NCBI GenBank assembly: GCA_964579135.1
Contig: CAZOFD010000001.1
Span: forward strand, 26,063-90,062
Direction: 5' to 3'
Length of the DNA: 64,000 nucleotides
From: an uncultured Ruminococcus sp.
GTDB lineage: Bacteria > Bacillota > Clostridia > Oscillospirales > CAG-272
Shown: positions 5,670 through 32,687 of the stretch, in pieces
Layout of the letters: each line of letters starts with the position of its first letter
Numbering within the stretch: the stretch's first letter is position 1
The notes under the pieces: model-generated
Database searches by the model: none
Told to the model about the DNA's origin: nothing
Seen by the model: only the letters and a program-made list of their open reading frames with translations
Made by a program: the position numbers and the translations under genes

Positions 5670-6506
5670 ATGGAAGAATTTCTCGCTTGGCTCGTTGCCA
5701 CGCTCAAAAATATCGGGATAAAGTCGCTCGCGGCTATCGCAGTGCTCGCACTCGGCTCCGCCGTTATAAAATTCGTTTTACGCCGCTTCAGGCAAGGCAA
5801 AACGTACGAGAGGCTCGACCCCACCGTGCGCAGTTTTCTGCACTCGTTCATATCCATAGCGCTGTGGGTGCTGCTTATCGTTTGCATCGTAGCCATTCTC
5901 GGCGTACCTATGGCGTCCGTAACGGCGGCGATCGCGTCTGCGGGCGTTGCCATCGGTCTCGCCTTGCAAGGCTCGCTTGCAAATCTTGCGGGCGGCATAA
6001 TGCTTTTGATATTTCGCCCGTTTGAGATCGGCGACTATATAGAAACCGAGGGCGGCAGCGGCACCGTGCGCGAGCTCGGCATATTCTACACGATGCTTTG
6101 CACCCCCGACAACAAACATATAACCATCCCGAACGGCACGCTTATGAACACCGCGATAACAAACTATTCGCGCGAAAAAACGCGCCGAGTCGACGTTGCC
6201 GTCGCCGTACCTCACGACGCCGACCTAAGAGGTGCCGCCGAGCTTGCGAAACGCATCGCCGAGGAGAACAAGCTCGTTCTTCCCGAGCCGAAAGTATTCG
6301 CGAAGATCACGGATATAGGCGACTCGTACGCAACGCTTACCGTTCGCGTTTGGGTAAACAACGGAGATTTTTGGACGGTCAAGCACGACCTTATCTCGAG
6401 TTTGCGCGAGGGCTTTGACCTTGCCGAGATAAAAATACCGCACAACACGATGGACATATCCGTTAAGACCCCCGAGCCCATAAAGGAGCAAAATACGAAA
6501 AAATGA
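5670..6506 (+). CDS. Small-conductance mechanosensitive channel (MscS family)
   Basis: Three N-terminal TM segments, then the MscS core (GLALQGSLANLAGGIMLLIFRPFEIGDYIE..GTVRELGIFYT.L.TPDNK.ITIPNG). I chose the start at MEEFLAW (5670) with AAAGGA upstream; the tracked ORF starts at 5562. Confidence 0.85.
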   Translation: MEEFLAWLVATLKNIGIKSLAAIAVLALGSAVIKFVLRRFRQGKTYERLDPTVRSFLHSFISIALWVLLIVCIVAILGVPMASVTAAIASAGVAIGLALQGSLANLAGGIMLLIFRPFEIGDYIETEGGSGTVRELGIFYTMLCTPDNKHITIPNGTLMNTAITNYSREKTRRVDVAVAVPHDADLRGAAELAKRIAEENKLVLPEPKVFAKITDIGDSYATLTVRVWVNNGDFWTVKHDLISSLREGFDLAEIKIPHNTMDISVKTPEPIKEQNTKK

Positions 6507-23739: not shown

Positions 23740-23768
23740 TTGACAACGCGAGCAAAAACGATTATAAT
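23740..23768 (+). promoter_or_regulatory. Sigma-A-type promoter for the cobalamin-riboswitch leader
   Basis: TTGACA (23740..23745), 17-nt spacer, TATAAT (23763..23768). Confidence 0.7.
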
Positions 23769-23834
23769 TGCCTTGTTCTGAATCAAGGTCAAACGATTCG
23801 AAACGATTTTAAATCAGATCGTAAAAACAGAATA

Positions 23835-24116
23835 TTTCGCAGTTCGGTTTCGCTTTACGCGAATCAGAGGGAAGTTCGGTGAAAATCCGTCGCAACCGTC
23901 ATTACCGTAATTGGAGTTTTCTTCATAAGTCGGAATACTCACCGAACAAGGCGATGGTCATTCGTGTGGTCACTCTCTTGCGACCGCAAGCGTTTTTGGG
24001 CATGAAAAGCGCAGCCGTTTCTATTTGTGCCAAGGGGTATTGCACCCTTTTGCCGCCTATGGGATAGCTGCGCTTTTTTATCGCTTTTCAGCGTAAAAAA
24101 GCGCATTTTTGTTTTT
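23835..24116 (+). promoter_or_regulatory. Cobalamin (B12) riboswitch with terminator/antiterminator expression platform
   Basis: Aptamer hallmarks: AGAGGGAAG..GGTGAAAATCC (23866..23888), ..CCGTAA.., and a B12-box-like AAGTCGGAATACTCACCG (23927..23944). The terminator stem is TGCGCTTTTTTA/TAAAAAAGCGCA (24069..24105) plus a U-run. GAAAAGCGCAGC (24004..24015) can pair instead with 24067..24077. The boundaries are approximate. Confidence 0.72.
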
Positions 24117-24127
24117 CGGAGGCGACG

Positions 24128-24457
24128 ATGGCAGACAAAACTTTTACAAAAAGCACCTGTATCGAACTTTTGCAAAACAAAAGCGCACAACTTGCAAAGT
24201 CGGGGGACGCGCGCTATCCGCGCCGTTCCGATTTCGGCGAAAGCGAGGTCGCGGCTATAAAAAGCTTTCTCGGTCCGTGGCCGCGCGCACTCGAGGCGGC
24301 TGGCGTTAAATCTTTGCGCGACGACAGCCGTGCAAAAAAAACGAAAGAAAAACGCATCGCCGCAAAACGCGAAAAGACCCGCCGCAAGATCGCGAATATG
24401 CAAAACTCAGGTAGCGAGCTAAAGCAATCTCCGCCTTTCGCAAGCGATGACGATTAG
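24128..24457 (+). CDS. Small basic protein with a homing-endonuclease-associated-repeat (HEAR)-like motif
   Basis: GGAGG RBS 5 nt upstream. The sequence ..YPRRSDFGESEVAAIKSFLGPWPRALEAAGVK.. matches my memory of the HEAR pattern (P..sDF....i...FGsW..AL.aAGl). The tail is Lys/Arg-rich. Confidence 0.6.
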   Translation: MADKTFTKSTCIELLQNKSAQLAKSGDARYPRRSDFGESEVAAIKSFLGPWPRALEAAGVKSLRDDSRAKKTKEKRIAAKREKTRRKIANMQNSGSELKQSPPFASDDD

Positions 24458-24564
24458 CCGATGGCGCCACCGCCGCGCTTGCCCGAATCGCCTTATCTTT
24501 TGAGGCGGAAACTCACCCAATATAAAATATTTGCCCGATCGGCAAATGATAAGGAAAAGAAAAA

Positions 24565-25383
24565 ATGAAAAAGATCATCTCTCTCATCCTCACCGCACTC
24601 ACGGCAATGACCGTCATCGCCTGCGTCGCCGTTCCCTGCGCTGCCGGAAACGAGGCGTTCGTTTACGTTACGATAGTCGACGGAAACGGCAACCTCGCTC
24701 TTACGCAAAAGCAAGTAACCGTTACCGACGTCGATAACGACGGCAAACTTACCGTAAACGACGCTCTTTATTGCGCACACGAGCAAAATTACAGCGGTGG
24801 CGCAAGCGCGGGCTACGCCTCATCGCAAAGCTCCTACGGTCTTTCGCTCGACAAACTTTGGGGCGTGCAGAACGGCGGCGCATACGGATATTACGTTAAC
24901 GACGCTATGGCGATGAGCCTTGCGGACACCGTAACGAACGGCGACTTTATAAACGCTTTCGTATACACCGACACCACCGCGTGGAGTGATACTTATTGCT
25001 TCTTTTCAAGTAGCGTCGCAAGCAGCGTTGCCGGCGGCAAGATACTTCTCACGCTGAACTGCTTGGGATACGACGCACAGTCATCCTCTTTCGTCAATAT
25101 GCCGATCGAGGGCGCGACCATCACCGTTAACGGCGCGGCAACGGAATACAAAACGGATGCAAACGGCTCCGTTTACCTCAAGATAGACAAAGCGGGTACG
25201 TACGTCGTCAGCGCAACGAGCACCTCGAAAAATCTCGTCCCCCCCGTGCTGACCCTCTCCGTTACCGCAGCCGCCCCCGAAACGGGCGACACCGAACTTT
25301 GGATTTTGGCGGCACCGGCGCTTGCCTTGACCGCGCTGCTCGGGGCTGCGTTCGTATATCGTCGCAAGCACGATGAGATCTAA
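24565..25383 (+). CDS. Secreted DUF4430-like protein with Ig-like middle domain and C-terminal sortase-type sorting signal
   Basis: Signal peptide MKKIISLILTALTAMTVIACVAVPCAAG. DUF4430-like region (VYVTIVDG....LTVNDAL......YGLSLDKLWG....GYYVND). The C-terminus is AAPETGD, then a hydrophobic stretch, then RRKHDEI. Confidence 0.7.
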   Translation: MKKIISLILTALTAMTVIACVAVPCAAGNEAFVYVTIVDGNGNLALTQKQVTVTDVDNDGKLTVNDALYCAHEQNYSGGASAGYASSQSSYGLSLDKLWGVQNGGAYGYYVNDAMAMSLADTVTNGDFINAFVYTDTTAWSDTYCFFSSSVASSVAGGKILLTLNCLGYDAQSSSFVNMPIEGATITVNGAATEYKTDANGSVYLKIDKAGTYVVSATSTSKNLVPPVLTLSVTAAAPETGDTELWILAAPALALTALLGAAFVYRRKHDEI

Positions 25384-27127
25384 ACCTTTACGCGCGACGG
25401 CTCTTATTGCCGTCGCGCTGCTTTTACTTTGCCTTTTTCCCGTAACGGGGGCAGCGACGCAAAACGGACAAGCCGAAGCCGAGGCGATATATTCCTCGGT
25501 GCTCGCCTCGCTCGGAGCGGACACAAACAACGTGCAAACGTTTATCGACGAAAAACTTGCCGCCGCGCCGGCAAACGGCTCGGAATGGTACGTTATCGCA
25601 CTTTCGCAAAGCGGAACGTACGACTTTTCGCGCTACGAATCGGCGCTTGTCGCTTACCTTAACTCGGCGACGATATCCTCCGCCTCCTCAAGGCTGAAAT
25701 TCGCGCTTTGCCTTGTCGCCGTCGGCTCCGAAAACGAATATATCCGAAATGCGATAGATTCCTCCGTCGGAAAGCAAGGGATTATGAGTTTGATATTCGG
25801 GCTGCACCTTATAAACAACGGCTATACAGCGGCAGACTATACCGCGCAAGACCTTGCCTTAGAGATCGTCGGCGCGCAACTTGCGGACGGCGGGTGGAGC
25901 GTCGTCGGTCAAGCCGGCGACCCCGACGTCACGGCAATGGCTTTACAAGCCGTCGCCCCGTATTGCGAAAGCAACGCAAGCGTTAAAAGCGCCTCCGAGC
26001 GCGCTGTCGATTTTCTCTCGTCAAAGCAGTTGCCAAGCGGCGATTTTGCCTCTTTCGGCACGCCGAATCCCGAGAGCACCGCGCAAGTTATCATCGCCCT
26101 TGCCTCGCTCGGCATCGACGCGGAAAACGACGCGCGATTTAAAAAGAACGGTACCCCTTTCGACGGGATAAACAAATATCGCCTGCCGAGCGGTGACTTC
26201 GCGCACACCGAGGGCGGCGCGTCCAACGCCAATGCCACTATGCAGGTCTTTTGCGCCTCGGCGGCGTATATACGTTTTTGCCGCGGCTTGTCGCCGTTTT
26301 ATTCGAATCTCGGCAGCAATAATACGAACGGCAACGAGGCGACCGGCGAGCAAACGACCGGCGAGCAAACGACCGCCGACAAAACCGGCGACAACGGCTC
26401 TGCCGCGCTTACCGACGGTGCGGGCGACGACCGCGAGCAAACCGCGCAGCGTGACGGCAACGGCAACGCCTCTTACAAGCCTTATGCCGTATCCGCGATC
26501 GTTTTGGTCGCGTGCGGCGTAGCACTCGGGCTTTTTGTCGCCAAAAAGCGCAAGATCTCGAATTTTGTCGCCGTTATCCTCGTTGCCGCCGCCGCAAGTG
26601 CCGCCGTGCTGCTTACAGACGTACGCACGCCTGAAGATTACTACGGCTCCACCGAGCAAAAAACGGACGTTATCGGCACGGTATCGCTGAGCATAAGGTG
26701 CGACACCGTCGTAGGGCTCGGCGACGCCGTACCGCAAAACGGCATTATTCTCGACACCGTTTACGTGGATATCTCCGAGGGAGACACCGTATTGTCCGTT
26801 TTGACCGAGGCGGCGCGGCGCTGTTCCGTAAGGCTCGACGTCTCGGGCGACGGTGCGCTTGCCTACGTCAACGGCATAGCGTTTCTATACGAATTCGACT
26901 TCGGTCCCCTCTCGGGCTGGACTTACCGAGTGAACGGCGAGATGCCGTCCGTCGGCGCGGGGGCGTACACGCTCGCCGACGGCGACGTGATCGAATGGCT
27001 GTACACAAAGGAACTCGGCTCGGATATTTCACGTTGCCGCGCTGAGCGGGTGCGCTCGCCGTACCGCTTATGTGTTTCGTTAAAAGCGGGAAAATCAGCG
27101 GAGCTTTTCCTATCGGAGCGTGCTTAA
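25373..27127 (+). CDS. Membrane-anchored protein: alpha/alpha-toroid (prenyltransferase/squalene-oxidase-repeat-like) domain, TM hairpin, and C-terminal DUF4430 (transcobalamin-like beta domain)
   Basis: Signal peptide. Repeats QLADGGWS, KQLPSGDFASFG and YRLPSGDFAHTEGG. TGEQT low-complexity linker. Two TM helices flanking KKRKISN (26483..26617). C-terminal ..DISEGDTVLSVL......YVNGI......GPLSGWTYRVNGEMPSVGAGAYTLADGDVIEWLYT. Confidence 0.75.
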   Translation: MRSKPLRATALIAVALLLLCLFPVTGAATQNGQAEAEAIYSSVLASLGADTNNVQTFIDEKLAAAPANGSEWYVIALSQSGTYDFSRYESALVAYLNSATISSASSRLKFALCLVAVGSENEYIRNAIDSSVGKQGIMSLIFGLHLINNGYTAADYTAQDLALEIVGAQLADGGWSVVGQAGDPDVTAMALQAVAPYCESNASVKSASERAVDFLSSKQLPSGDFASFGTPNPESTAQVIIALASLGIDAENDARFKKNGTPFDGINKYRLPSGDFAHTEGGASNANATMQVFCASAAYIRFCRGLSPFYSNLGSNNTNGNEATGEQTTGEQTTADKTGDNGSAALTDGAGDDREQTAQRDGNGNASYKPYAVSAIVLVACGVALGLFVAKKRKISNFVAVILVAAAASAAVLLTDVRTPEDYYGSTEQKTDVIGTVSLSIRCDTVVGLGDAVPQNGIILDTVYVDISEGDTVLSVLTEAARRCSVRLDVSGDGALAYVNGIAFLYEFDFGPLSGWTYRVNGEMPSVGAGAYTLADGDVIEWLYTKELGSDISRCRAERVRSPYRLCVSLKAGKSAELFLSERA

Positions 27128-27128
27128 A

Positions 27129-28007
27129 ATGAGATCTCTCGACAACCTCAACCCCATAACGGCAGCCGTATACTTTACATGTGCAATATGCATACCGACC
27201 TTTTCGCAGAACCCCGTAACGACGCTGACCGCCGTTGCGGCGTCCGCGCTGTACTGCATTATGCGCAAATGCCGCGCACTTCGCTCGACTATGCGTTTTT
27301 GCTTGCTTTTCGTTGTCGTTATGACCGTGCTGAATCCTCTTATTTCGCACAACGGCAAGACCGTGCTCTTCTTTATAAACGATTCGCCCGTTACCGCCGA
27401 AGCGGCGATATACGGTGCGCTGTCGTCACTCGCAGTATCTGCCGTTATCCTCTTTTTCAGAGCACTGTCCGATATCCTTACGCAGGACAAATTGCTCTAC
27501 GTTTTCGGCAAAACCTCGCCGAAGACCGCGCTCGTTTTATCTATGGCTCTGCGCTACTCCTCGCTTTTGCGCGAAAAGGCGCGACAAATCGAGGATAGCC
27601 AGACCGCGCTCGGGCTTTACGAGGACGGTAACGTGGCGGCAACGATCAAAGGTAAAGCGCGTATTTTTTCCGTACTTGTCACGTGGTCGCTCGAAAACGG
27701 GATAACGACCGCCGACTCTATGGCGTCTCGCGGATACGGCAAGCACCGCCGCACGTATTTTTCTTTGTTCGGTTTTTCCGCAAGTGACGCGGCAACACTT
27801 GCTTTTACCGCTGCGTGCACGTCACTTTACGTAGCGGCGGCACTTCGCGGCGACTTGGCTTTCGCTTGTTATCCGAGCATCGCAATATCGCCGCTCACCC
27901 CGCTCGGCGCCGTCGCGTATACGGCATACGCGCTGCTTGCACTGTTTCCCGTGATATCGGAATCCGGAGAAAGGCTCAAATGGAAATACTTAAGGTCGAA
28001 GATCTGA
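27129..28007 (+). CDS. ECF transporter transmembrane (T) component, EcfT/CbiQ family
   Basis: Polytopic membrane protein with the conserved ..ALRYSSLLREKARQIEDSQTALG.. coupling-helix region. The ATG at 27129 is 1 nt after the upstream stop, with GGAG upstream. Confidence 0.8.
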   Translation: MRSLDNLNPITAAVYFTCAICIPTFSQNPVTTLTAVAASALYCIMRKCRALRSTMRFCLLFVVVMTVLNPLISHNGKTVLFFINDSPVTAEAAIYGALSSLAVSAVILFFRALSDILTQDKLLYVFGKTSPKTALVLSMALRYSSLLREKARQIEDSQTALGLYEDGNVAATIKGKARIFSVLVTWSLENGITTADSMASRGYGKHRRTYFSLFGFSASDAATLAFTAACTSLYVAAALRGDLAFACYPSIAISPLTPLGAVAYTAYALLALFPVISESGERLKWKYLRSKI

Positions 28008-29638
28008 CTTTTCAATATCCCTTATCAGAGCGTACCGCCGTTCGCTCCGCGTCGTTTGCCGTAAACTCGGGCGAATTCGTAGTCCTTTGCGGAGCAACTG
28101 GAAGCGGCAAATCGACTTTGCTTCGTTGCTTGAAACCCGAGATCGCGCCGACGGGCACAAAAAGCGGAAATATCGTTTTTCAAAACGCGCCGCTCGACGT
28201 CGGATCCGAACGCATAGGCTTCGTCGCGCAGCGCCCCGATGAGCAAATAGTTACCGACAGAGTGTATTCGGAGCTTGCTTTCGGGCTTGAAAATCTCGGC
28301 ACCCCGAGCGACGTCATCGCTCGCAAGATCGCGGAGATATCCGCGTTTTTCGGCATAGAAGATTGGTTTGAGCGCGACGTCGCAACACTCTCGGGCGGGC
28401 AAAAGCAACTTTTGAATCTCGCCGCGGTAACGGTCACGGAGCCCGATCTCATACTCCTCGACGAGCCGACCTCGATGCTCGACCCCATCGCGGCAAGCGA
28501 CTTTATATCGATGCTGAAAAAGCTGAATCGCGAACTTTCCCTGACCGTCGTTATCGCGGAGCACAGAACGGAAGACGCCGTCGCCGCTTGCGACAGAATA
28601 ATCTTTATGGCAAACGGCGCCATCGTCGCCGACGGCGATCCGCAAACGATTGCCGCGGTGGGCGGCGATATATTGCCGTTTATGCCGGCGGCAACGCGGC
28701 TCTATCATATGGTCGGCGGCACGGGCGCGTGCCCCGTAGATGTGCGCGACGGCAAACGATTCGCGGCACGCTTCGCCCCGCAGACCGAATACGAAACGAA
28801 AAAAAACAAAGGCGCGAGCACAAACGATACGGTCGCGCCAAAAAAGAGAAAGCGCGATATCGCCGAAGCCGCGCTCGAATTTAACGACGTATACTTTAAA
28901 TACGACAGAAAATCCGACGACGTACTCTCCGCGCTCGAGCTTTCGATATACGAAAACGAGATATTTTGCCTGCTCGGAGGCAACGGCTCGGGCAAATCCA
29001 CACTGCTCTCCTGCGCGTGCGGATTGCGCAAGCCGTACGGCGGCAACGTTCGCGTTTTCGGCAAAAAGATATCCGACTACCGCGGCGGAGAACTGTATTC
29101 GGGGTGTGTATCGCTTCTTCCGCAAGACGTTCAAACGCTTTTTTTGCGTGCAAGTGTGCGCGAGGAGCTCGAAGACGCGTACGAAAGCGCCGCCGATTCT
29201 CCGATCGATCTCTCGCCCCTCTTCGAAAAGCACCCGTACGATCTGTCGGGCGGCGAGCAACAACTCCTCGCATTGGCAAAGGTGCTGTCGCGCAAACCGC
29301 GCCTGCTCCTTATGGACGAGCCGACGAAAGGGCTCGATCCACGCAGAAAGGACGAACTGAGGCAGATAATAAAAGATCTCAGAGCACACGGAACAACGAT
29401 CTTGGCAGTCACTCACGACGTCGAGTTCGCCGCGAGCACGGCTGACCGTTGCGCCATACTTTTCCGCGGCAAGGCGCTCGGCACGGCAACGCCACGCGAT
29501 TTCTTCTCTTACGGCAGTTTTTATACCACTGCGGCTGCCCGTATGGCGCGCGGATATTTCGAGGGGGTGGCGACCACCGAAGACCTTGCCGCCGCGTGCC
29601 TAAAAAGCCTTGAGATAGCGGAGGCGGCAACAAAATGA
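27980..29638 (+). CDS. Fused tandem ECF/ABC ATPase (EcfA-EcfA')
   Basis: Two complete ABC cassettes. The first has GATGSGKSTL / LSGGQKQ / LILLDEPTSMLD; the second has GGNGSGKSTL / LSGGEQQ / LLLMDEPTKGLD. The start at 27980 (MEILKVEDLTF) overlaps ecfT by 28 nt. Confidence 0.88.
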   Translation: MEILKVEDLTFQYPLSERTAVRSASFAVNSGEFVVLCGATGSGKSTLLRCLKPEIAPTGTKSGNIVFQNAPLDVGSERIGFVAQRPDEQIVTDRVYSELAFGLENLGTPSDVIARKIAEISAFFGIEDWFERDVATLSGGQKQLLNLAAVTVTEPDLILLDEPTSMLDPIAASDFISMLKKLNRELSLTVVIAEHRTEDAVAACDRIIFMANGAIVADGDPQTIAAVGGDILPFMPAATRLYHMVGGTGACPVDVRDGKRFAARFAPQTEYETKKNKGASTNDTVAPKKRKRDIAEAALEFNDVYFKYDRKSDDVLSALELSIYENEIFCLLGGNGSGKSTLLSCACGLRKPYGGNVRVFGKKISDYRGGELYSGCVSLLPQDVQTLFLRASVREELEDAYESAADSPIDLSPLFEKHPYDLSGGEQQLLALAKVLSRKPRLLLMDEPTKGLDPRRKDELRQIIKDLRAHGTTILAVTHDVEFAASTADRCAILFRGKALGTATPRDFFSYGSFYTTAAARMARGYFEGVATTEDLAAACLKSLEIAEAATK

Positions 29639-30321
29639 AAACGATAAAAAACGCCAAAATTCGCCGCGCGATAAAAATAATCGTACCGTTATTCGCCATC
29701 CCCACGCTCGTTCTGGCAAGCGCAAAGGCGACGGGCGAAAGGGTAGCGCTTTTCACCTCGTGCGCAGTAGCCGCGCTTACCGTTCCTCTTTTCGTCGCCG
29801 GCGTCGAAAAGGCGGAATTCGGCACACGGCGCACCGTTATCGTGGCGATATTGACAGCTCTCGCCTCGTTCGGCAGGCTGATACCGTTCTTTAAGCCGGT
29901 AACGGCTATCGCCACCATCGCGGGGATACATTTGGGGGCGGAATCCGGATTTGCGGTAGGAGCTTTTTCGGCGCTGATATCGGATTTTTATTTCGGTTTG
30001 GGTCCTTGGACGCCGTTCCAAATGCTTGCTTGGGGCGTAATAGGCTTTTTTGCCGGGGTATTGTCCTCGCCGCTCGGGCGCAGCCGCGTTATGCGTACGT
30101 TTTACGGAGTCGTCTCGGGGGTAGCCTTTTCGCTGATAACGGACGTATGGACCGTAACTTGGTACAACGGCACGTTCAGCGCGTCGCTGTACCTTGCCGC
30201 AACGATAACCGCGCTACCTCACACGATTTTGTACGCGGTGTCGAATCTTTTGTTTCTCGCGCTGCTGTCAAAACCGTTCGGCGAAAAGCTCGAGCGCGTC
30301 AAGATCAAATACGGCGTTTAA
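29635..30321 (+). CDS. ECF transporter substrate-specific (S) component; putative corrinoid-specific, from operon context only
   Basis: About 228 aa, six predicted TM helices, ATGA overlap with the ATPase. The specificity is inferred from the riboswitch, not from sequence. Confidence 0.65.
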   Translation: MKTIKNAKIRRAIKIIVPLFAIPTLVLASAKATGERVALFTSCAVAALTVPLFVAGVEKAEFGTRRTVIVAILTALASFGRLIPFFKPVTAIATIAGIHLGAESGFAVGAFSALISDFYFGLGPWTPFQMLAWGVIGFFAGVLSSPLGRSRVMRTFYGVVSGVAFSLITDVWTVTWYNGTFSASLYLAATITALPHTILYAVSNLLFLALLSKPFGEKLERVKIKYGV

Positions 30322-31523: not shown

Positions 31524-32687
31524 TTAAAATTTTAAATATTTGATAAAATCGGTTTCGAATCCGCAGCTTTCCGTTAAAAGTACCGTGTGCACGTCCCTTA
31601 TAAAACCGAAAAGATCTCCTCTCCGCTCTTCCCCCGCACACAGCACGTCGCGCGCACCGGCAAGCGACGTATTGCCGCAAACAACTACGTTTTTATCCGC
31701 AAGGCTCGGTAATACTCCGAGATATTCGAGATCTGCGGCATCGATACCGTCGCCGAAACTTCCGCAAATATATACGTCTCGCACGTCATCCCCGACGGCT
31801 TCCAATGCGCAACGCACCGCGGATTTCGCAAGCTGAAACGCCCGAACGTCCGCCTGCGAAACGTACACGTTCTCCGTCAGATAAAATCTTCCGTCGCGCA
31901 AGCGTACCTGTGCCGCCTCGCCGACAAAAGCGCCGTTATCGTCAAGTGCCCCGATGCGCCGCAATGCGGCAAAGGCACCGACAAGTCCGCTGCCGCATAT
32001 CCCGCGCGGTCTTTCGCCGCCGACGACGCGAGGCACAAGGCGCGCGCCAACCTGCTCGACGCGATATATCGCGCCCGGGGCATATCGCATACCGCATTCC
32101 ACCCCACCGCCCTCAAAGGCGGGACCCGCCGCCGCACTTGCCGCCGTCATACGCCCACCCGAAACGGAAACCGCCTCGCCGTTCGTTCCGAGATCGAGCA
32201 TAAGCGCGCTGTCTTTGCGTTGCATACCGAGCGATACCACCCCGGCGGTGACGTCCCCGCCGACAAACGAGGATATCGGCGGCAGCAAAAAGACGCTGTT
32301 CGCGTTTATACCGATCTCGTCCCCGCCGAACTCCGATTTATTCGGCAAAACGGACGCATAAGGATACGTGCCGAGGGAAAGCGGAGATACGCCGCACAAA
32401 AAATGCAGCATAACCGTATTCGCGGCAATAACGACTCGTTGCGGAGATACGCCGCAGGTCGTCTCGCAAAGCTCGTTAACGGCGGAACGCAAACACGCCG
32501 TCAGCTCCGCAAGATGCTCTTGCGACGCGGCAATACGTGACATAACGTCCGCTCCGAAACGAGCTTGCGGATTTGCGACAGCCGCCGATGCCACGTTTTC
32601 GCCCGTCCCGAGATCCACGCACTCGCACACGATCGTCGTAGTGCCGACGTCAATCGCCGCGCCGATATTTTCGCGTTTTTCCGCCAT
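31524..32687 (-). CDS. ASKHA-fold ATPase of the DUF4445 / RACo (corrinoid reductive activase) C-terminal type, lacking an N-terminal ferredoxin domain
   Basis: Phosphate-1 motif AIDVGTTTIV and the RACo-like LMLDLGTNGEAV motif. At 387 aa it starts directly with the ASKHA domain. Confidence 0.65.
   Translation of the reverse strand: MAEKRENIGAAIDVGTTTIVCECVDLGTGENVASAAVANPQARFGADVMSRIAASQEHLAELTACLRSAVNELCETTCGVSPQRVVIAANTVMLHFLCGVSPLSLGTYPYASVLPNKSEFGGDEIGINANSVFLLPPISSFVGGDVTAGVVSLGMQRKDSALMLDLGTNGEAVSVSGGRMTAASAAAGPAFEGGGVECGMRYAPGAIYRVEQVGARLVPRVVGGERPRGICGSGLVGAFAALRRIGALDDNGAFVGEAAQVRLRDGRFYLTENVYVSQADVRAFQLAKSAVRCALEAVGDDVRDVYICGSFGDGIDAADLEYLGVLPSLADKNVVVCGNTSLAGARDVLCAGEERRGDLFGFIRDVHTVLLTESCGFETDFIKYLKF

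Follow-up and report, generated by a model that had tools for sequence, protein, structure and literature searches.

A predicted transcobalamin-like surface protein with a membrane hairpin between its two domains, encoded beside an ECF-type transporter in an uncultured Ruminococcus

What would a protein built like an animal vitamin B12 carrier do beside a bacterial vitamin importer? Transporters of the energy-coupling factor (ECF) type are usually described as needing no extracytoplasmic binding proteins. In a stretch of 64,000 nucleotides (nt) from an uncultured Ruminococcus sp. (contig CAZOFD010000001.1, positions 26,063 to 90,062 of the forward strand; the whole stretch is called the window below), the open reading frame (ORF) at 25373..27127 (+) encodes a protein of 584 amino acids (aa), referred to here as the target, in which a toroid and a beta domain are joined by two transmembrane (TM) helices and which is followed directly by the genes of an ECF transporter. 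We read the target, with a probability of roughly 70%, as an outward-facing, membrane-anchored corrinoid capture protein serving a dedicated, riboswitch-controlled ECF-type B12 importer; the binding of B12 and its hand-off to the transporter are what we infer within this reading. It belongs to a large family, unnamed and as yet untouched by experiment, that pairs a transcobalamin-like binder with such an importer. If binding is confirmed, the family would provide a tractable bacterial counterpart, and possibly, following a proposal of 2007, the ancestor, of the animal B12 carriers, a new tether for a two-lobed ligand clamp, and a likely determinant of B12 competition among Firmicutes, Bacteroides and the host.

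Fold and membrane topology of the target

The structure of the target was predicted with AlphaFold2 from an alignment of 120 homologues (38-49% identity to the target), and the model obtained had a mean predicted local distance difference test (pLDDT) score of 86.6 and a predicted template modelling (pTM) score of 0.72. It was composed of a toroid (12-13 helices, aa 32 to 303, pLDDT mostly >94), a disordered stretch (aa 320-363), two long helices (aa 369-389 and 395-414) and a mixed alpha/beta domain (aa 433-545). When this model was compared with the PDB by Foldseek, ranks 1-15 were all occupied by rat, human or bovine transcobalamin (TC), intrinsic factor (IF) and haptocorrin (HC), with E values from 5.6e-8 to 3e-6; the alignments extended over about 530-570 columns with both domains in the same order and reached a target-normalised TM-score of 0.63, at a sequence identity of just 10-12%. 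Terpene cyclases (drimenyl-diphosphate synthase and other class II enzymes) appeared from about 1e-4 and covered the N domain of the target only. The isolated beta domain of human TC (5no0) was matched with an E value of 3.3e-4 and a target-normalised TM-score of 0.77, and the DUF4430 protein 3u7z was likewise among the matches. Since by our arithmetic the toroid alone would give a pTM of only about 0.46, the value of 0.72 for a chain of 584 aa, about 95 of them disordered, would imply that the alpha and beta domains (with the hairpin) are confidently placed as an assembly in the model.

At the sequence level, the two domains behaved differently. DUF4430 (PF14478), described as the C-terminal domain of TCN proteins (PMC4350170), was identified in the target at aa 470-546 (nt 26780-27010; E 6.1e-16, 59.1 bits against a cut-off of 23.8) and in all 61 family members that were scanned with Pfam, 47 of which also matched SQHop_cyclase_C, 37 Prenyltrans and 35 SQHop_cyclase_N. 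The toroid of the target taken alone gave a match to SQHop_cyclase_C under the cut-off (E 7e-4, 19.1 versus 26.1 bits), and the family profile picked up, in the PDB, only toroid repeats of the squalene-hopene-cyclase type (E 1e-8). A single-sequence phmmer search of the target against the PDB returned no match, and transcobalamin was reached by fold comparison only. As modelled, the target is transcobalamin-like in architecture and fold, with a beta domain that truly belongs to DUF4430. Conserved residues of the family include H145, N149, D185, Q238, Q291, W516 and Y544. The conserved motif G-D-[PV]-D-[VA]-T-A-M at aa 182-189 (nt 25916..25939), with D185 invariant, resembles, in a decayed form, the DxDDTA motif of class II terpene cyclases, a hint that toroids of the cyclase type are ancestral to this one or have repeats in common with it.

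An initial annotation of the window had proposed, from the sequence, a signal peptide, an alpha/alpha toroid marked by QLADGGWS and LPSGDF motifs, a C-terminal DUF4430-type domain and a resemblance to transcobalamin in both parts but not in their connection. The features were confirmed, and the resemblance to transcobalamin is supported by the model and the matches given above. The N-terminus is hydrophobic at aa ~6-28 by Kyte-Doolittle hydropathy; the motifs were located at aa 169-176 (QLADGGWS, nt 25877-25900) and at aa 220-225 and 271-276 (LPSGDF twice); and between the matched alpha and beta folds lie a stalk, a first TM helix (TM1), a loop and a second TM helix (TM2). About 115 residues, the two TM helices among them, separate the domains. 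The homologues align with the target from residue 1, and ATG 25373 is therefore favoured as the start. The public gene call for the target (P0001) is only 542 aa long, with a GTG start at residue 43, so that 25373..25498 are left out and the signal peptide is lost; a localisation predicted automatically from the deposited P0001 would come out wrong.

The topology was assigned from hydropathy and charge bias across the family. Two internal hydrophobic segments were present after the toroid in 120/120 homologues, and the Kyte-Doolittle mean of both exceeded 2.1 in every member with values listed; the 19-residue means in the target were 2.6 (aa ~370-390) and 2.3 (aa ~398-417). The 10-column loop window between them was of constant length in 119 of the 120 homologues, with the consensus KKRNxKNF and with K392 and N397 kept in at least 90% of the sequences. 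Its mean net charge was +4.0 (range +2 to +6), as compared with -1.6 for the 16 residues after TM2 and about 0 for the 15 residues before TM1. Given the N-terminal export signal and the positive-inside rule applied to this charge bias, the toroid is placed outside, the loop inside and the beta domain outside; judged from sequence, both soluble domains should face outward and the loop should be cytoplasmic. The outward orientation of the two domains had also been claimed in the initial annotation, and the occurrence of a basic loop between two segments throughout the 120 homologues supports it. The helices that it had described on either side of KKRKISN, and its TGEQT-TGEQT-TADKT linker of three 15-nt units, are present as well, with corrected limits: the hairpin occupies about 26480..26623 instead of 26483..26617, and the linker (aa 324-338) nt 26342-26386 instead of 26341..26385.

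The stalk before TM1 varied in the family from 14 to 164 residues (median 61.5), and in the model of the target the beta domain starts only about 15 well-predicted residues past TM2. The short gap and the long, variable stalk together suggest a beta domain close to the membrane and a toroid held on a leash. TM2 has about 20-22 hydrophobic residues and its AXA motif was not conserved among the homologues inspected, for which reasons it is read as an uncleaved signal anchor. A literature search found no description of a membrane hairpin joining toroid and TC-beta/SLBB modules. This connection through the membrane is the new element; B12 scavengers made of a toroid and a TC-beta module in CbiO/CbiQ operons had already been predicted in 2007.

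Gene cluster, riboswitch and relatives

The target belongs to a conserved cluster of six genes, consisting of a small ORF, a partner surface protein, the target, EcfT, a fused EcfA-A' and an S component (Table 1). Over 85 loci of the family, the partner gene stood next to the target in 77, and synteny was seen for EcfT in 78, for EcfAA' in 79 and for the S component in 72; in some loci the gene order was permuted with the ECF genes leading. The stop codon of the partner gene and the ATG of the target overlap by 11 nt, and related loci show overlaps of 11-14 nt, which suggests that the two are translationally coupled. For the S component, the sole sequence relative in the PDB was 6fnp_A of ECF-CbrT (E 3.9e-5); its Pfam family is the generic ECF-ribofla_trS and no specific NCBIfam model matched, and from its sequence it is predicted to be corrinoid-specific.

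The cobalamin riboswitch (RF00174) at the head of the cluster scored 30.4 bits against a gathering threshold of 31.5 when Rfam was run in E-value mode (E 7e-5 to 5e-6), and in gathering mode the whole window gave no match. Its positional homologues scored 32-89 bits. RF00174 was found to head the same cluster in L001, L003 and L004 (40.1, 32.4 and 79.6 bits, respectively), and a riboswitch of the cobalamin clan stood above gathering at the same position in 8 of 11 further loci. The aptamer core of the window was near-identical to those of the above-threshold riboswitches in L001, L003, L008 and L019. A strict pattern of aptamer plus B12 box was detected on the coding strand in 40 of the 85 loci and on the opposite strand in none (0/85), always at the cluster head. 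The terminator-like hairpin directly behind the aptamer is a candidate for the expression platform. Because a cobalamin riboswitch heads the cluster both here and in related loci, and because the S component is CbrT-like, the context reads as specific for corrinoids. In two loci, L046 and L069, the small ORF stands between binder and ECF genes, and each part has a riboswitch of its own; with two riboswitch-like elements per locus, the binder and ECF halves appear to form separate B12-regulated transcription units in some genomes.

The family was detected in at least 574 species-representative genomes. Among the best 80 loci, those that were classified came from uncultured gut and rumen Clostridia (Lachnospiraceae, Oscillospiraceae, Ruminococcus, Acutalibacteraceae and others). 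A search with the toroid only (aa 29-315 of the target) was carried out against 1.84 billion representative proteins and yielded 4997 clusters at E<=1e-3, and 734 (50% identity clusters) at E<=1e-30. Architectures were then counted in the 145 closest new representatives. The hairpin type (alpha-TM-TM-beta) accounted for 107 of them, whereas short proteins with alpha and beta domains joined without two TM helices were not seen (0/145). Eight were alpha-only proteins that end in a stalk, one TM helix and a short basic tail (such as ...AVRKRKKSS or ...FYRLRKK), 15 were giant proteins of 1.1-3.6 thousand aa, and 11 had no TM helix after the toroid, being fragments or proteins with other anchors, one with a dockerin. 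Four fell outside these classes, and one of these, P0347, was alpha-only by inspection, with a TM helix and a basic tail.

The alpha domains of the alpha-only and giant relatives are 37-55% identical to that of the target (for example P0253, P0256 and P0268, and P0241 and P0303). Alpha-only relatives share with the target the stalk, TM helix and basic tail after the toroid, but are without TM2 and the beta domain. On the contigs that include upstream DNA (L086, L088, L089), the overlapping partner gene was found ahead of the alpha-only gene as well, and unrelated genes came after the alpha-only gene in L086; the alpha-only contigs are short (1.3-6.2 kb), and a beta gene may lie elsewhere in those genomes. 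The giants (P0241, P0250, P0255, P0262, P0288, P0289, P0298, P0303, P0325, P0336, P0350, P0359, P0363, P0365 and P0371) differ from the target in having 2-3 toroids, all close to that of the target, together with beta and Ig-like (immunoglobulin-like) domains, and in being anchored by SLH domains or a single C-terminal TM helix. All except P0359 carry 1-3 DUF4430 domains. Their pattern is alpha ... beta ... alpha, stalk, C-terminal TM helix, and 11 of the 15 end in the last three of these elements; P0241 has SLH and Ig-like domains. The giants may be multivalent corrinoid binders.

As the alpha-only relatives end in a stalk, one TM helix and a basic tail, the hairpin of the target suggests itself as a tail anchor to which a signal-anchored beta module is joined. 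TM1 with KKR would then correspond to a stop-transfer tail, and xKNF with TM2 to a signal anchor's n- and h-regions. On the simplest reading, the arrangement of toroid, stalk and tail anchor would be the older one, the hairpin family having arisen when a signal-anchored beta module was appended; otherwise, the alpha-only forms would have lost that module.

Proposed mechanism, known systems and rival explanations

In the mechanism that we propose, the signal sequence would export the toroid, and the flexible, variable stalk would lead to TM1. The 7-residue basic loop would stay in the cytoplasm, TM2 would export the chain again, and the beta domain would come to lie on the membrane surface. A corrinoid would be enclosed by the toroid on one side and the beta domain on the other, in the manner of transcobalamin, would be kept at the membrane, and would be handed to the CbrT-like S component beside the membrane-proximal beta domain. 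The co-translated partner encoded upstream would probably act as a second or first capture or relay module, and B12 would turn the whole unit off through the upstream riboswitch. The hairpin itself would be primarily an anchor and a fusion scar. After cleavage of intrinsic factor, its fragments IF30 and IF20 continue to form a tight assembly around cobalamin (PMC6257451), which argues that a short covalent linker is dispensable, and nothing in our analysis shows that the hairpin does more than anchoring.

The target resembles the TC/IF/HC carriers (PDB 2bb5, 2pmv/3kq4 and 4kki) in having an N-terminal toroid of alpha6/alpha6 type followed by a beta-grasp DUF4430/SLBB domain, and in being extracytoplasmic. 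The carriers are soluble and have a short flexible linker, whereas the halves of the target are linked through a stalk and the two TM helices, with KKRKISN as the cytoplasmic loop; unlike the carriers, it stands in a riboswitch-controlled bacterial importer operon, and its alpha domain has no PF01122 match. Transcobalamin's C-terminal domain was recognised as an SLBB beta-grasp domain by Burroughs, Balaji, Iyer and Aravind (2007; PMC1796856), who also described bacterial fusions of SLBB with alpha/alpha toroids, SLBB paralogues and CbiO/CbiQ operons, predicted a role in B12 scavenging, and proposed that animals obtained their carriers from Gram-positive bacteria with low GC. With the proteins of that study the target shares a surface SLBB domain with an export signal, the toroid fusion and the CbiQ- and CbiO-like neighbours (78-79 of the 85 loci). 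Their text mentions signal peptides, Gram-positive wall anchors and fusions to Ig, FIVAR, fasciclin and propeller domains, but no TM hairpin between toroid and SLBB, and it has no link to a riboswitch or to CbrT and no structure prediction (PMC1796856).

In Lactobacillus sakei, the genes Lsa1836-1840 encode an ECF transporter together with the secreted TC-beta-like Lsa1839 and TC-alpha-like Lsa1840 (bioRxiv 10.1101/864751). As in the present cluster, ECF S, T and A components are encoded with TC-alpha- and TC-beta-like modules that were proposed to capture a ligand and pass it to the S component; there, however, the modules are two polypeptides and heme is the claimed ligand, as opposed to one chain through the membrane and a cobalamin riboswitch here. 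Lactobacillus delbrueckii takes up vitamin B12 with ECF-CbrT (PDB 6FNP; PMC5997447), whose S component is the one weak PDB match of the S component found here and whose energising module has the same composition. It is a group II transporter with a shared ECF module and no described extracytoplasmic binding protein, whereas the cluster found here has a dedicated (group I-like) module and, in addition, two genes for surface binders. The Bacteroides proteins BtuG, BtuH and BtuJ (PMC6143338, PMC10404256 and PMC13616437) provide a functional analogy, namely riboswitch-linked corrinoid capture at the surface of gut bacteria that feeds a transporter, but their folds and anchoring are unrelated, and they are outer-membrane lipoproteins feeding the TonB-dependent BtuB. 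According to a 2026 review, extracellular cobamide capture in Gram-positive Firmicutes is entirely uncharacterised. Mentions of DUF4430 in the literature are few.

Several observations weigh against a corrinoid capture protein for a B12 importer. The whole-chain superpositions on TC and IF have a root-mean-square deviation (rmsd) of 8-17 Å and do not demonstrate a TC-like orientation of alpha and beta domains. Cobalamin_bind (PF01122) gave no match in the target at E<=1 and was not listed for the 61 scanned members, while by sequence the alpha domain resembles a terpene-cyclase/prenyltransferase toroid; on this comparison, it has either diverged too far for PF01122 or been recruited separately, out of the same superfamily of toroids. 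The riboswitch of the window falls 1.1 bits short of the Rfam gathering threshold, and between it and the first binder gene downstream there are 600 nt with one small ORF and, at 24500, a weak promoter-like site. The match of the S component to CbrT is weak (E 3.9e-5). Finally, in at least 3 of the 85 loci (L056, L057 and L080, with the target at 6001..~7600) neither a partner gene nor ECF genes were detected beside the target; by Pfam, its neighbours in L056 and L080 are housekeeping genes with no relation to the cluster, and the riboswitch motif was not found in these two. L014 has the partner gene, and no ECF genes were seen in the ~2.8 kb of contig downstream.

In the main rival reading, the hairpin would also be a working part. 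TM1 and TM2 would then pack on EcfT or on the toppling S component, and ATP-driven motion would pull them apart, open the alpha/beta sandwich and free a corrinoid that is otherwise bound almost irreversibly. The conservation of the hairpin (fixed loop length, KKRNxKNF, presence in 120/120 homologues) exceeds what a generic anchor needs, the beta domain sits about 15 residues from the membrane with high pLDDT, and a dedicated ECF module is encoded in close linkage to the binder genes. In addition, carriers of the TC type have near-zero off-rates and release their ligand by proteolysis, a route of no use to a transporter (PMC5997447). Such an active clamp would solve this release problem without proteolysis, the transporter would be the first of the ECF type whose extracytoplasmic substrate-binding protein is coupled to it mechanically, and gut Clostridia would compete for B12 with homologues of the host's carriers. 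We consider it unlikely, as no sign of a contact between the hairpin and an ECF subunit was seen, a single tail anchor suffices in the alpha-only relatives, other relatives are anchored off the membrane by dockerin or SLH domains, and a few loci have no ECF neighbours; the conserved loop motif is perhaps a mere signature of stop-transfer and signal anchor. There is even less to recommend a TM2 that is cleaved as an internal signal peptide, leaving a tail-anchored alpha part and a free or retained beta part that assemble like IF30 and IF20, or a hairpin with one segment that does not span the membrane and a beta domain in the cytoplasm. The loop and TM2 do resemble the n- and h-regions of a signal peptide, an ASA motif lies inside TM2 of the target, separate alpha and beta proteins exist elsewhere, and the cleaved IF fragments work; the hydrophobic length of TM2 and the unconserved AXA speak against cleavage, and the hydropathy of both segments, together with a charge bias that puts the loop inside, against a segment that does not span.

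The same architecture might bind heme or another tetrapyrrole in place of a corrinoid, which we regard as quite improbable. For Lsa1836-1840, docking and a phenotype in heme uptake have been reported (bioRxiv 10.1101/864751), a result that also tells against a corrinoid ligand, and the missing sequence match between the alpha domain and the eukaryotic cobalamin-binding family would fit. However, the cluster starts with a cobalamin riboswitch here, as it does in many related loci, the S component resembles CbrT, and hemin does not compete in ECF-CbrT (PMC5997447). Least credible of all is a toroid that works as an extracytoplasmic enzyme of the terpene-cyclase/prenyltransferase kind on a membrane or wall isoprenoid, with DUF4430 as a generic ligand-binding accessory. 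Its best sequence matches are indeed squalene-hopene-cyclase and prenyltransferase repeats, and the G-D-x-D-[VA]-T-A-M motif resembles the DxDDTA of class II cyclases. Yet the whole family has Val or Ala where DxDD has its last Asp (D-P-D-V in the target, D-V-D-V in the consensus), the cyclase matches remain far under their cut-offs (TIGR01787, 22.5 versus 322.7 bits), the fold of the whole protein matches B12 carriers best, and the operon and riboswitch point to transport, not to isoprenoids.

Partner protein, gene ends and neighbouring features

The partner surface protein has no Pfam family above threshold and hundreds of homologues. Its AlphaFold2 model (pLDDT 90.2) consists of a beta-grasp-like domain (aa ~31-133) and an Ig-like or CarboxypepD_reg-like domain (aa ~142-234). 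In Foldseek, the N domain matched human TC beta (5no0) with E 7.1e-4, a TM-score (TMt) of 0.64 and an rmsd of 3.0 Å over 111 columns, amid generic Ig matches. No link between the partner and DUF4430 was obtained by Pfam, pairwise BLAST or profile-profile comparison with hhalign; the one hhalign match was discarded as spurious, since it was aligned to the toroid. The profile of the partner family against the PDB gave Ig-like noise only. On the structural model, the N domain of the partner would be TC-beta-like, which fits the second SLBB paralogue of Burroughs et al. A type I dockerin was observed on a partner homologue (P0204) and on an alpha-only toroid protein (P0385), and some relatives may thus be carried by cellulosome scaffolds instead of the membrane.

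At the other end of the target, the final ~31 aa (RCRAERV...SERA, nt ~27032-27124) are unconserved and have pLDDT <50, and 102 of the 120 aligned sequences stop at reference residues 552-554. As most homologues end earlier and the pLDDT is low, this end is read as a read-through tail. A lipoprotein anchor was rejected for the target because no lipobox was read in its N-terminus. In the stalk, Tandem Repeats Finder reported a repeat of 15-nt period at 26340..26391 (3.7 copies, 87% matches); a function of its own for this repeat was likewise rejected, as linker length and sequence are unconserved across the homologues.

Table 1. Coordinates of the features discussed, in the window unless a locus is named
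Feature	Position	Strand	Remarks
Sigma-70-type promoter	23740..23768	+	TTGACA-17-TATAAT; 12/12 consensus matches; upstream of riboswitch
Cobalamin riboswitch aptamer	23828..23960	+	RF00174; full-length match, peripheral extension shortened
Terminator-like hairpin	23977..23999	+	CTTGCGACCGCAAG and T-run; directly after aptamer; candidate expression platform
Small basic ORF	24128..24457	+	109 aa; first gene after riboswitch
Partner surface protein	24565..25383	+	272 aa; signal peptide, TC-beta-like domain (from model), Ig-like domain, TM anchor ending RRKHDEI
Target, signal sequence	25373..25456	+	aa 1-28; from hydropathy and AlphaFold2 model
Target, alpha/alpha toroid	25457..26317	+	aa ~29-315; transcobalamin alpha-like; contains QLADGGWS, 2x LPSGDF, GDPDVTAM
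Target, disordered stalk	26318..26479	+	aa ~316-369; T/S/E/A/D/P-rich; holds 15-nt tandem repeat
Target, TM1	26480..26542	+	aa ~370-390; predicted outside to inside
Target, cytoplasmic loop (predicted)	26543..26563	+	aa 391-397; KKRKISN; family consensus KKRNxKNF
Target, TM2	26564..26623	+	aa ~398-417; predicted inside to outside; signal-anchor-like
Target, beta domain	26669..27031	+	aa ~433-553; predicted membrane-proximal; DUF4430/SLBB, transcobalamin beta-like
Target, putative read-through tail and stop codon	27032..27127	+	unconserved; overlaps ecfT start
EcfT	27120..28007	+	CbiQ family; PF02361 E 1.1e-11
Fused EcfA-A'	27977..29638	+	two ABC_tran domains; start set at MEILKVEDLTF within ORF 27815..29638
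ECF S component	29635..30321	+	CbrT-like; PF07155 E 2.9e-11
Cobalamin-riboswitch-like elements, L046	4934-5012 and 7670-7739		one before binder genes, one before small ORF and ECF genes
Cobalamin-riboswitch-like elements, L069	732-810 and 3480-3551		one before binder genes, one before small ORF and ECF genes

The small ORF of 109 aa gave a match to HNH_repeat (PF18780, E 2.3e-5) just under the cut-off and has no TM segment. Its homologues were found by tblastn in 49 of the 85 loci, always heading a sub-operon, either before the partner gene or before ecfT; in L025, L026, L046 and L069 it stands between the target and ecfT. Beyond the operon, 1.2 kb past its end, a gene at 31524..32687 (-) encodes a protein like RACo, the reductive activator of corrinoid proteins, with the ASKHA domains Raco_middle and RACo_C_ter (E 1e-40 to 1e-49) and without the usual N-terminal ferredoxin domain. 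Judged from this activator gene, the organism probably uses corrinoid-dependent methyltransferases.

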